This document shows, one piece after another, positions 4,432 to 7,828 of a stretch of 12,022 nt of DNA (the stretch's first letter is position 1; every line of letters begins with the position of its first letter). Source of the DNA: Candidatus Bathyarchaeia archaeon (GTDB taxonomy: Archaea; Thermoproteota; Bathyarchaeia; Bathyarchaeales; Bathycorpusculaceae); assembly GCA_049512935.1 (NCBI GenBank), contig JBEKWR010000034.1:1-12022 (forward strand). Reading direction: 5' to 3'. The position numbers were made by a program, and so were the translations under genes. Under the pieces are notes generated by a model that was not told where the DNA came from, did no database searches, and saw nothing but the letters and a program-made list of their open reading frames with translations.

Positions 4432-4513
4432 AGTCTCACTTTAACTTTTTAGAAGCAAAATGGTTTTGGCTGCCTTTAAACCTTAACGGAGTATTTTAAA
4501 GATTACCTGAATG

Positions 4514-4519
4514 TTTAAA
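4514..4519 (+). promoter_or_regulatory. TATA box candidate for the ncRNA at 4543
   Basis: TTTAAA lies at -29..-24 relative to G4543, which matches canonical archaeal spacing. Confidence 0.55.
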
Positions 4520-4542
4520 GGCTATTGGGTCAGTTTTTGTTT

Positions 4543-4664
4543 GGGTGGGCAATGACGACTCTGGCCCCGAAGACGCGAGGATGATGAGGATCTTGAGTGC
4601 GAAGACGGCAAAATGAACGCTCAGGCTAGTCTTGAACGTTCACTTGTCCTCGAAGAGCCCACCT
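4543..4664 (+). ncRNA. Atypical box C/D-like, multi K-turn/K-loop small RNA
   Basis: Terminal stem GGGUGGGC/GCCCACCU. C-like motifs AUGACGA (4552), AUGAUGA (4581) and AUGAACG (4613). CGAAGA at 4568, 4600 and 4651. Upstream TATA box. No ORF of 60 aa or more covers it. Confidence 0.65.
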
Positions 4665-4777
4665 AACAAAATGCCGCGCCTTTAAGCTTGATAAATGAGC
4701 CCTAACACCAAGCCTTTGAACCAACGAAAACCAGATTTATGCAGGTTAAAACCGTTTTAAGTTTCCAAAAATTGTTT

Positions 4778-4898: not shown

Positions 4899-6191
4899 TT
4901 GGTGACGATTTTGTCGGCGGCTAACATTAGCCAAGTCTACCTCTCTTTAATCCGCACCTTCCAGTTTTATCCCCAAAGACCCACGCTTAACCCCTCGTTC
5001 GACTTTCTCGCAGACGACGCAAAATACTATAATTCAGTCATAAGCGGAAACACAACCTTGGGACAAATGGGCAAGTCTGTTCCAGGCCTTGGAAAACTGC
5101 GCTCTCCTCTTGACGGCTCATGCGCCCTTAATCAAAAGAAAAAAGTGGAAGCAGACTCGCTGTTGACCAAGTTTCAAGACTATTACACGAAGCTTTACGC
5201 TCAAAAGCTGACACTCACGGCGCATTATCCCTGCGTCATCGACATCCTCCCGTCCAAAGGCGTTAATTATCAATTGGATTCCTCGACTCTGCCAGGCTCC
5301 CTGAGCAGCGCTGAAGAAAAAGAAACCAAGATGAGCGCTTCCCTAAGAATCTACCCCGCTGGCTTAGCTTCACTTCGGCTGGGCTTGTTCCTTAGCACGC
5401 AAAGCAGCTTCAAGACGGAAGACATCATCGAGTTCCTCAAGGGAAAAAACGCGGTCGTCAAGATTAAAGCGGAGCAATTCACCATTGAAGACTTGACAGC
5501 TGAATACAGACGCCGACTGCTTGCCGGGTTAAACACTGAGCTTAACTCTTTCAACTGGGAAGACACCTTTTCTTTCGTTGACATAATCAAGGCGGCGCCG
5601 TTAACCCTTGCACAAAACCAAAACGACGTGTTTTTGCCGCTCCTCTGCCTCAAATCAGCACCGAGGGCGAACGAGTGCAGCATCGATAACCTCTCCGAAG
5701 ACCCCGACATCCTTTTGCCCGGATCAAGATGCTTCGTTTCTTACCTTCCCTCAGGAGAGAAGCCAGACCGACGCAAAGTCCGAGGTTGGCTTCGAAACAG
5801 CCTTGAACTCTACTACATGCAGAAGTTTCTAATCCAACGCATCGCTGCACTGACGGACAGCGCGAATTATTCCAGCCTGCTGGAGGAAGTTAACTGGATG
5901 ATAAAGGTTAAGAAGTGGATTTTGCCGCCTAAAATCGCGTCTTTACTGTCTGCTATGAACTACACAAGCCTTCACACAAGAATCTACCCACTGCAAAAAG
6001 ACGTGTGGAGAACCAGATACAACAAAACCCTGCTGGTCTTGGACAAAGGGAACGACATCACGACCGCTAATGCGCAGGCAAAGACGCAGGTCGACGCGAT
6101 TGTGAAGTTAACAAATGACAACAACCATGAAGTCGGCTCGTGGTTTCAGAAGCTCGTTGACATAGCCGCCAAGTTTGTGGGCAAATCCTAG
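4899..6191 (+). CDS. Hypothetical protein (430 aa), no family recognised
   Basis: Long ORF with normal protein composition. TTTTTAT at 4868-4874 lies about 25-31 nt before TTG 4899/GTG 4902, which suggests a leaderless transcript. Confidence 0.8.
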   Translation: MVTILSAANISQVYLSLIRTFQFYPQRPTLNPSFDFLADDAKYYNSVISGNTTLGQMGKSVPGLGKLRSPLDGSCALNQKKKVEADSLLTKFQDYYTKLYAQKLTLTAHYPCVIDILPSKGVNYQLDSSTLPGSLSSAEEKETKMSASLRIYPAGLASLRLGLFLSTQSSFKTEDIIEFLKGKNAVVKIKAEQFTIEDLTAEYRRRLLAGLNTELNSFNWEDTFSFVDIIKAAPLTLAQNQNDVFLPLLCLKSAPRANECSIDNLSEDPDILLPGSRCFVSYLPSGEKPDRRKVRGWLRNSLELYYMQKFLIQRIAALTDSANYSSLLEEVNWMIKVKKWILPPKIASLLSAMNYTSLHTRIYPLQKDVWRTRYNKTLLVLDKGNDITTANAQAKTQVDAIVKLTNDNNHEVGSWFQKLVDIAAKFVGKS

Positions 6192-6248: not shown

Positions 6249-6821
6249 TTATTTCTTTGGTTTTTCCCACAGCTCAAGCTTTTCTTTCTTGAGTTCGCTG
6301 CGCTTCCGTTGCAGGTACCTGTAGACCGTGTGATGTTCGCAGCCCTCGATAATCATCTGCACCGCGTTCCTAGCTGTATCCACCTGCTCAAAGCTGCCGA
6401 TTATCCCAATTGTGTGACCGTAAACAACTACATCAGCTTCCGACAACTCTTCAATCAGCTTTCTTGTCTTGCCTTCGGTGCCGATGATTCTGCCTTTTAC
6501 GCGTTTAATGTCCGATTCTGAGCGTCCAAAGACCAAGCGCAAATCTACCAAGTCAAAAATTTCGTCTTCGTTACGTATCAAGCGGTAAGTGACTTCGGGC
6601 GCGAACCCTCTGCCGATAGCCATTACAACGTCTTTTGCCTTCAGCAGCAGGGATGGGTCGGTTGCTTTTTCTGAAAGCGTAATGGCGACATCTCCTTCGC
6701 TTTCAACGGCAAGTTTTACCTGAAGCTTCTCCTCAATGTACTGTTTAACTTTGCCTTCGGGGCCAATCAGTATGCCGACTCGTTCTTTCGGAATTTTAAT
6801 AAACGTGTCCAAACCAGTCAT
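6249..6821 (-). CDS. KH-domain rRNA-processing protein (archaeal Dim2/Pno1/Krr1 family)
   Basis: Two KH GxxG loops (RVGILIGPEG, GRIIGTEGKTR), AIGRGF and GCEHHTVYRYL. It follows rio1 directly. Confidence 0.95.
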   Translation of the reverse strand: MTGLDTFIKIPKERVGILIGPEGKVKQYIEEKLQVKLAVESEGDVAITLSEKATDPSLLLKAKDVVMAIGRGFAPEVTYRLIRNEDEIFDLVDLRLVFGRSESDIKRVKGRIIGTEGKTRKLIEELSEADVVVYGHTIGIIGSFEQVDTARNAVQMIIEGCEHHTVYRYLQRKRSELKKEKLELWEKPKK

Positions 6822-6824
6822 TTT

Positions 6825-7607
6825 TCAGCCAACAACCATCTTATGCAATTCTTCAACAGGAATAACCTTTACGTCTAACCGACTAAAGAACCTATTCAGG
6901 TTCGTCAAATCCCGCGTCAACAACGAGTCAGCCATCGGATGCTCGATCGCCACGGACTGGGACATGTCGAAAATCACGGGTCTGCCCTTCCACATCATGA
7001 TGTTGTATTCGCTGAGGTCGCCGTGCACTATCTTTGCTTTCTGGCGTAGCCTCTTGAGGTAAGTTACTAGTATTTTGTAAACTTTTTCAGGGTCAGCTGG
7101 CGGCTGCTCCTTGAGCGAGGGGGCGCTAACGCCTTCCTTTCCAATGAACTCCATAACTACAACGTTGCTTTTTACCGCGATAGGTTTTGGCACACGTACC
7201 TTTGCATCAGTAGCTTCTTTGAGGTTGCGAAACTCTTTTTGTGCCCAAACAGCAATCAGCGAGCGAGTGTCATGTTTGACATCTTTAAAACGTGGGTCGC
7301 CTTCAATGTATTTGTGCATGCCCTTCTTGAACTCGGCCGAAGAGGTTAAGTAAATTTTCACCGCTAAGTCCTTGCCTTCCCTATCTGTTGCCCAGTAAAC
7401 TCGCGCTTCCTTCCCAGAGCTAACGACGCCGTTGACTTCGTAAAGGACGCCGCTGTTTAGCAGGTCAAATACGACCATGCGGGTGGTTTGGTCAAAAACC
7501 TCCTCTACGGTGGCGCGTTCCTTTGTCATGTCATGGATCAGCATTTTGTCTCTTCGCTCGACTCTTCTTTCGTTGTGTGCAAGGCGTTCTTGAGCTTTCT
7601 TAGACAT
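6825..7607 (-). CDS. rio1: RIO1-family atypical Ser/Thr kinase (small-subunit biogenesis)
   Basis: SSGKEARVY, AVKIY, YIEGDPRF, WAQKEFRNL, VHGDLSEYNI and IFDMSQSV. ATG 7607 is preferred because TTTTAATA at 7645-7638 overlaps the longer GTG start. Confidence 0.96.
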   Translation of the reverse strand: MSKKAQERLAHNERRVERRDKMLIHDMTKERATVEEVFDQTTRMVVFDLLNSGVLYEVNGVVSSGKEARVYWATDREGKDLAVKIYLTSSAEFKKGMHKYIEGDPRFKDVKHDTRSLIAVWAQKEFRNLKEATDAKVRVPKPIAVKSNVVVMEFIGKEGVSAPSLKEQPPADPEKVYKILVTYLKRLRQKAKIVHGDLSEYNIMMWKGRPVIFDMSQSVAIEHPMADSLLTRDLTNLNRFFSRLDVKVIPVEELHKMVVG

Positions 7608-7828
7608 AACAGTCAACCAGCCTAATCTCTGTAGGACTATTAAAACCACTCGAAGCCAAAGAGGAAACTCGGTTTATAATAGTTTGATCGTAATAGAAAT
7701 TTTTATATATTTTTTTATATTACGAAATGAAATTTGCCGAATTTATCCAAGCATGCGACTCGCTGCAAAATAATTGACTGTGCTCTTCAAATCGTTGATG
7801 CAGAAATGATTGATTAAAAAATTAAAGG

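Follow-up and report, generated by a model that had tools for sequence, protein, structure and literature searches.

The 12,022-nt stretch of Candidatus Bathyarchaeia archaeon contig JBEKWR010000034.1 analysed here (the window) contains, at positions 4543-4664 of the + strand, a genuine small RNA (sRNA) gene whose product is an enlarged box C/D sRNA with unusual boxes. The reading that we consider probable is that of an enlarged local ortholog of a box C/D sRNA family, with a guide against tRNA-Leu(CAA), a hairpin inserted behind that guide, and a D' guide for which no target has been established. As judged from its letters, the RNA represents a known kind of gene in a new structural variant, with the anticodon loop of tRNA-Leu(CAA) as its predicted target. 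The initial annotation of the window had proposed an undescribed class of tri-partite RNA; this is not supported for the window copy, which is instead an enlarged member of a phylum-wide and otherwise ordinary C/D sRNA family whose D guide matches tRNA-Leu(CAA). The sequence features listed in that annotation were all found again by direct reading, and its description of an independently promoted box C/D-like RNA of the kink-turn (K-turn) type on the + strand, putatively bound by L7Ae, about twice the usual size and with D boxes that read AAGA in place of CUGA, agrees with what was found in relatives.

The gene belongs to a family that is spread across the phylum. A BLAST search with 4440-4720 matched 32 of 41 related genomes, among them members of other families in the order, with a conserved core running from 4543 to ~4601, and a pattern assembled from box C and both guides matched at least 120 contigs of a species collection, nearly all of which bear Bathyarchaeota or Bathyarchaeia in their titles. 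After relaxation, the pattern fitted 153 of 159 loci, and in 139 of these a terminal stem could be located. A covariance model built from short homologues (65-85 nt) found the family in 105 of 151 genomes, a sample spread evenly over the phylum, and gave a single match in most of them. Most relatives are ordinary box C/D sRNAs of 65-72 nt: 66 of the 139 homologues measure 65-85 nt and follow the standard order of stem, box C, 11-nt guide, D', short loop, C', guide, D and stem, and 73 exceed 85 nt owing to a hairpin between the tRNA-Leu guide and box D. Among 20 model matches fetched from other families and classes of the phylum, most carry canonical boxes (e.g., GUGAUGA...UUGA...UGAUGA-G-GAUCUUGAGUU-CUGA); GAUCUUGAG, the core of the tRNA-Leu guide, precedes box D in 18 of them, and the first guide varies. 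The best relative reached 40.7 bits (E = 2.6e-6) on the generic Rfam C/D model, under its 45-bit gathering score, and an Rfam search with the window RNA and its relatives found no family sharing the guides. In the part of the literature matches that was listed, no publication joins Bathyarchaeota with box sRNA. The family model also gave a weak second match in the source genome (G000 C12:56311-56350, + strand; E = 7.3e-4, 22.4 bits), which may be another C/D-like RNA.

Promoter and terminal stem argue for an RNA gene on the + strand. The TTTAAA noted earlier at -29 is present, and a TATA-like box was found at -36..-20 in 116 of the 139 homologues, compared with 6-9 of 139 in three control windows. 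The 8-bp terminal stem, one pair of which is G-U, covaries among relatives: 38 double-sided changes were counted in 63 distinct short forms versus 10.5 +/- 4.1 in shuffles, none of the 500 shuffles reaching that number, and sliding the register lowered the paired share from 81% to 37-54%. For this test the stem was supplied by hand, because RNAalifold had missed it on alignment A1. Many of its pairs are G-U in relatives and would be A-C mismatches on the opposite strand, by which the + strand is favoured. Next to the stem, AAU followed by GACGA (4551-4558) faces GAAGA (4652-4656), so that stem, 3-nt bulge and tandem G-A pairs stand in the order of a K-turn, in so far as sequence geometry can tell.

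The boxes themselves have drifted. The segment AAUGACGA at 4551-4558 departs from the canonical box C (RUGAUGA) by a single change, U to C; ATGAC is invariant in alignment A1, and in classes other than Bathyarchaeia, box C takes the canonical form GUGAUGA or AUGAUGA. Bathyarchaeia boxes read AUGACGA (or AUGACAG) as C and NNGA as D, and over the family CUGA, CGGA, GAGA, GCGA and AAGA have all been seen as box D, the constant part being only the GA that adjoins the stem. In the internal motif, the UGA of C' and the GA of D' are kept in alignments A1 and A2. The K-turn geometry described for the window in the initial annotation is present, and conservation supports both the terminal K-turn and the D'/C' kink-loop (K-loop). 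Orthologs of another lineage (L241, L252 and L256, from G057, G126 and G111) have AUGGCAG as box C, partnered by CUAA in G057 and G126 and with CUCA at that place in G111; in these the tandem G-A/A-G core appears to have been replaced on both strands together. The coordinates of the features are collected in Table 1.

Table 1. Features of the box C/D sRNA gene in the window.
Feature	Position	Strand	Remarks
TATA box TTTAAA	4514..4519	+	29 nt upstream of G4543
Whole sRNA	4543..4664	+	122 nt; ends inferred from terminal stem
Terminal stem, 5' strand GGGUGGGC (C stem of terminal K-turn)	4543..4550	+	pairs with 4657-4664
Box C variant AUGACGA	4552..4558	+	C for U at position 5; follows 3-nt bulge ending AU
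D' guide CUCUGGCCCCG	4559..4569	+	conserved in Bathyarchaeia, variable in other classes
Box D' variant AAGA	4570..4573	+	NAGA in genus, CUGA or NUGA elsewhere
Box C' AUGAUGA	4581..4587	+	internal K-loop with D', 7-nt loop 4574-4580
tRNA-Leu(CAA) guide GAGGAUCUUGAGU (predicted)	4586..4598	+	would pair with A31-U43 of spliced tRNA; core GAUCUUGAG 4589-4597
Middle CGAAGA	4600..4605	+	where short relatives have box D; starts CGAA
Inserted hairpin	4604..4651	+	predicted pairs 4604-05/4650-51, 4607-11/4644-48, 4614-19/4637-42, 4621-25/4631-35; absent from 66/139 homologues
Terminal box D variant AAGA	4653..4656	+	directly 5' of stem strand; YAAGA-GCCCACC conserved in genus
Terminal stem, 3' strand GCCCACCU	4657..4664	+	pairs with 4543-4550; inverted repeat

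The predicted target is tRNA-Leu(CAA). A box C/D guide is expected to match rRNA or tRNA over about 10-12 nt; the second guide pairs with the spliced tRNA over 13 contiguous positions (12 Watson-Crick, one G-U; -23.1 kcal/mol, as compared with -19.0 for the precursor), a value that equals the best of 3000 random genome windows, those having been scored with a slightly shorter 15-nt guide string. The gene for this tRNA (G000 C10:60704-60856, - strand; L259:80-232:-) holds two introns, one of ~29 nt after the D arm and one of 37 nt at 37/38, and its anticodon arm reads AAGGA-CUCAAG-(37-nt intron)-A-UCCUU. These two introns made the target invisible to genome-wide complement searches and to ARAGORN: among the 42 tRNAs that ARAGORN found, nothing convincing was seen as a target, and the exact complement of the guide (CACTCAAGATC) occurs in 41 genomes almost only in the sRNA gene itself, a search that was blind to the target since the tRNA gene reads GACUCAAG and then runs into the intron. 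Of 25 relatives, 24 yielded an arm with CUCAAG, A38 and UC at 39-40, which reads AAGGA...UCCUU in 23; the arm of G038 reads CGGGA...UCCCG, and the entry for the 25th relative, G030, looks spurious. The arm occurs in other classes as well: a similar one was found in G117, G083, G041, G048 and G057, and the guide of G057 (CGGGAUCUUGAGU) fits its own arm (ACUCAAGAUCCCG); in G050, G046 and G135, CUCAAGA is followed by different bases at 39-40. The 37/38 introns of the tRNA-Leu(CAA) genes begin with AUC in 20 of 20 cases in the genus, a start that extends the pairing of the guide in the precursor. In the tRNA-Leu(CAA) of three genomes from other families, the 37/38 intron has no counterpart.

By the known archaeal C/D system, L7Ae would bind the terminal K-turn, formed by AUGACGA and AAGA, and the internal D'/C' K-loop, and Nop5 and fibrillarin would then assemble on these sites; fibrillarin and Nop5 genes lie side by side on contig C30 of the source genome, which also holds two L7Ae-family genes. 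The guide after box C' (GGAUCUUGAGU) is complementary to tRNA-Leu(CAA) in its anticodon loop and 3' stem, with which it would pair. Where relatives keep the canonical spacing (GAUCUUGAG-NN-CUGA), the residue that faces the fifth guide nucleotide before box D is the wobble C34, and ribose methylation to Cm34 is therefore predicted for them. In the genus of the source organism, a structured hairpin of ~48 nt, which may be a decayed tandem D'-C'-guide copy, stands between guide and box D. The window RNA shares with archaeal box C/D sRNAs at large (snoPyro_CD, RF00095) the order C, guide, D', C', guide and D within a short terminal stem; it differs from them in its length of 122 nt, in its box C (AUGACGA) and box D (AAGA), and in the hairpin that separates the second guide from D.

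Precedents for such a target exist. A C/D guide for C34 of tRNA-Leu(CAA) has been predicted in Pyrococcus furiosus (snoRNAdb, as cited in PMC7668247), and that report places the C34 site among predictions that were not detected in the tRNAs analysed there; the P. furiosus guide and the canonical members of the present family have the same predicted substrate and position. C/D-guided Cm34 is established for tRNA-Trp, the intron of which guides Cm34 and Um39, as given in PMC6313347. That system and the present one have in common C/D-guided ribose methylation (here predicted) of the anticodon arm on an intron-containing precursor, and tRNA-Leu(CAA) likewise has a 37/38 intron, the first bases of which extend the guide pairing; the tRNA-Trp guide, however, lies in the intron of its own target and would act in cis, whereas the window guide is a separate, promoter-bearing gene that would act in trans.

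The extra half of the RNA is a lineage-specific hairpin insertion rather than a third conserved unit of the C/D type. Between guide and box D, the insertions fall into at least two independent kinds, one, seen in the genus and in related lineages, following GUGCG, and another, seen in 12 loci, with GAUCUUGAG before it and CCAAGAAUGCGNGA after it. The inserted segments fold as single hairpins: the median z is -1.6 for 27 distinct RNAs of the first kind that contain a C-like box (set B1a; 11 with z below -2), -3.1 for 30 distinct RNAs without one (set B1b; 23 below -2), and -1.6 for 12 distinct RNAs of the second kind (set B2; five below -2). The hairpin of the window copy has z = -2.2 and includes an inverted repeat (4611-4623 / 4633-4645; 85% complementary), so that the earlier caveat about alternative hairpins in 4586-4651 was right. 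Alignment A2, which MAFFT produced from the insertions, does not reflect structure and therefore served for no pair counts.

A tri-partite ribonucleoprotein (RNP), in which three K-turn or K-loop units would bind L7Ae and three guides (C-g1-D', C'-g2-D'' and C''-g3-D) would be exposed, is unlikely. The hexamer CGAAGA lies on the + strand at 4568, 4600 and 4651, and with 19 copies in the whole window on both strands versus 8.39 +/- 2.79 in shuffles, three inside 89 nt exceed chance; the unit CGAAGACG-N5-AUGA, moreover, occurs at 4568-4584 and 4600-4616, the copies being 76% identical across 17 nt at a spacing of 32. The 27 distinct B1a congeners retain in their insertion a C-like box (RUGAYRA or something close to it), and most of them, by eye, have a GA 7-11 nt upstream of that box. 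A strict K-turn test found GA in 5 of these 27 and UA in three, with a few more positives by hand reading, and a third L7Ae site is thus possible, as far as such motifs can indicate, in part of the genus. In the window copy, by contrast, the AUGA at 4613-4616 that had been taken for a third C-like box lies in the predicted Watson-Crick stem UGAACG/CGUUCA, where the facing strand reads AC and not GA, and a helix followed by a 3-nt bulge and a GA facing a helix-abutting GA is not found at 4600-4616. Of the triple K-turn/K-loop architecture, support extends only to the terminal K-turn and the D'/C' K-loop. Of the three CGAAGA boxes, the first (D') and the last (YAAGA at the stem) are conserved in the genus, whereas the middle one is not: the box after the second guide reads CGUA, CGUU or CGUG in congeners, or else CGGA or UGAG. 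The GNRA-like tetramers noted in the loops are likewise not conserved among relatives, and the 30 B1b forms, from the genus and from related lineages, have the hairpin and no C-like box. As for a third guide, 4642-4651, placed rightly beside the terminal AAGA, forms 10 bp with the 16S rRNA of congeners near 466, a match within the range of shuffles (up to 12); in the 57 long forms, the 12-nt segments that precede the terminal D box reach 5.6 Watson-Crick pairs with the rRNA of congeners, no better than the 6.0 of shuffles, and a third guide is not supported.

The direct repeats in the window, together with an ortholog (L026, G032) that carries the tRNA-Leu guide twice (AAUCUUGAGUG and GAUCUUGAGUG, the segment between being able to pair with the first), suggest a tandem copy of the D'-C'-guide module as the source of the insertion. 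In the window copy only, 4645-4656 (TGTCCTCGAAGA), which ends in the terminal GAAGA, is 83% identical to 4562-4573 (TGGCCCCGAAGA), the end of the D' guide with D'; this likeness could be a remnant of internal duplication or chance. A further-reaching reading, which we consider unlikely, is that an otherwise invariant wobble-methylation guide was rebuilt in the genus by a hairpin that probably goes back to tandem duplication and has its own K-turn in some congeners; the RNP, if it still methylates, would do so without a fixed guide-to-box-D distance by way of, for example, a third L7Ae site or a junction-like K-turn. RNAs are known that exceed the standard pair of K-turn sites or bear an additional helix at a K-turn strand: U3 snoRNA, an rRNA-processing RNA, has B/C and C'/D K-turns, and k-junctions have a third helix exactly at the C/NC junction. 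The inserted hairpin could be such an element; nevertheless, the window RNA has no sequence or target similarity to U3, and in contrast to a k-junction, it has 3-4 unpaired bases and a complete AAGA behind the hairpin.

Several observations weigh against the reading of the window RNA as an enlarged C/D sRNA guiding tRNA-Leu(CAA). In Rfam, the window RNA scores 12.9 bits on the generic C/D model (RF00095), and no model reaches its gathering score; the search suggested by the initial annotation gave only weak generic C/D matches, at E = 2-7. Compared with shuffles, the + strand does not fold better (z = -1.15) and the - strand does (z = -3.06). A search of metatranscriptomes found no transcript from the source organism: two RNA runs of one study each contained 0.10 of the sampled words, covering only 4542-4601, at 90-99% likeness, and the matching contigs run on into other upstream sequence, so that they derive from relatives and say nothing on expression in the source organism. 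As to the guide, the invariance of GAUCUUGAG across the 153 pattern loci is imposed by the search pattern itself, and the 20 fetched model matches include two exceptions, G154 with GGUCUUGAG and G175 without the guide, the latter perhaps not an ortholog. Changes in the guide track changes in the tRNA only partly, at flanking positions; position 39 is C or G in G050, G046 and G135 while the guide keeps A, and in G135 the guide suits the intron-containing precursor more closely than it does the spliced tRNA. Lastly, the D' guide ends at its box, as do the guides of the short orthologs, while 55 nt with the hairpin lie between U4598, the end of the tRNA-Leu guide, and the AAGA at 4653. Among the short forms of Bathyarchaeia, GAG and the GA of box D lie from 4 to 7 nt apart, and the rule therefore points to positions 32-34 and not to one residue; given this spread and the displaced box D, the methylated position (32, 33 or 34), or retained methylation, is not predictable for the window copy.

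These last points bear on the possibility that the enlarged form binds tRNA-Leu(CAA) or its precursor without methylating it, as a chaperone or processing aid with box D displaced. The guide is invariant although the hairpin breaks the guide-to-box-D spacing, the AUC at the start of the introns extends the pairing in the precursor, and in G083, as in G135, it is the precursor that fits the guide better; chaperone roles of C/D sRNAs have also been discussed (PMC7994747). Most lineages, on the other hand, have short orthologs with normal spacing, and in G057 the guide fits the spliced tRNA only; we consider a purely non-methylating role distinctly unlikely. That there is no RNA gene on the + strand at all, and that the signal comes from a chance cluster of motifs, from a minus-strand RNA or from the 5' leader of the open reading frame (ORF) at 4899-6191, is highly improbable: the better fold of the minus strand and the empty Rfam and expression searches are outweighed by phylum-wide conservation at one copy per genome, by a TATA box at a fixed upstream distance, by G-U pairs in the covarying stem that the opposite strand could not form, and by the finding of that ORF in 0 of 138 other loci.

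The reading of the RNA as a tRNA-Leu(CAA) guide was weighed against other targets for both guides. Since no rRNA genes were found in the source metagenome-assembled genome (MAG), rRNA targets were searched in the 16S and 23S genes of G001, G003, G014 and G040 with 1.5-kb flanks. In these, the tRNA-Leu guide formed no duplex of at least 9 bp with few G-U pairs; the best near-matches, of 7-8 pairs each, were 23S CUCAAGACC near 470, 23S CUCAAGGUA near 2040 and 16S CGCAAGAUU near 865. The pre-16S flanks offered G-U-rich sites only, and these are not conserved. tRNA-Ala(UGC), with 12 contiguous pairs of an energy merely in the top ~1% of the background, was superseded by tRNA-Leu(CAA). With helix 5 of the signal recognition particle (SRP) RNA, the second guide forms 10 bp including two G-U pairs in 4 of 5 genomes, interrupted in G034, and the first guide requires four G-U pairs and a bulge and fails in G034; SRP RNA was rejected as a target. 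Nothing was found for RNase P RNA or 5S rRNA, and ARAGORN placed no tRNA within the window. For the D' guide, the target sites of which would be CGGGGCCAGAG-like, the best candidate, and a weak one, is 23S near 1424-1435, with 11-12 pairs in the genus only. Across families it does not co-vary: the guide is unchanged in G029 and G032, whose 23S reads GGGCAAGGG, and G034 has another guide and yet a site of the genus type. tRNA-Arg, at 10 of 11 pairs, has a mismatch adjoining the predicted site, and genome-wide matches to the D' guide fall in ordinary coding-looking DNA.

The closed genomes of the genus used in this connection (L032/L037, G003; L033/L038, G014) have 16S and 23S genes that are unlinked, hundreds of kilobases apart, and in their 16S 3' trailer lies a GGAGG that could pair with the anti-Shine-Dalgarno end, to which it is complementary. 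In the stretches inspected, two short contigs of the source MAG (G000 C41:~3234 and C45:~3260) look by eye much more G+C-rich than the other contigs and may be contamination. Downstream of the sRNA gene, and convergent with it, lie a KH-domain gene (Pno1/Dim2-like; 6249-6821, - strand) and a RIO1 kinase gene (6825-7649, - strand), with the ORF at 4899-6191 (430 aa, no Pfam match) wedged between the sRNA and this pair in the window. Among 117 loci with at least 700 nt of flank, the KH gene, usually followed by RIO1, lies downstream in 49, at a distance of 300 nt or less in 29; this synteny is suggestive only and was not used as evidence.

For an uncultured lineage with very few assignable guides (a crude genome scan for canonical C/D candidates gave ~4, compared with 1 in a reversed-genome control), the family provides one. 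Archaeal C/D guides are described as fast-evolving, even inside one genus (PMC7994747), yet the letters of this guide are unchanged in nearly all matches phylum-wide, which points to a predicted ribose methylation of the tRNA-Leu(CAA) anticodon loop that would be widely retained. The long forms, for their part, are natural tests of the ruler that counts the fifth nucleotide from box D and of the drift of K-turn boxes (AUGACGA with AAGA here; AUGGCAG with CUAA elsewhere). If the enlarged RNP does methylate across its insertion, the insertion-bearing guide would represent a new working architecture for C/D RNPs.

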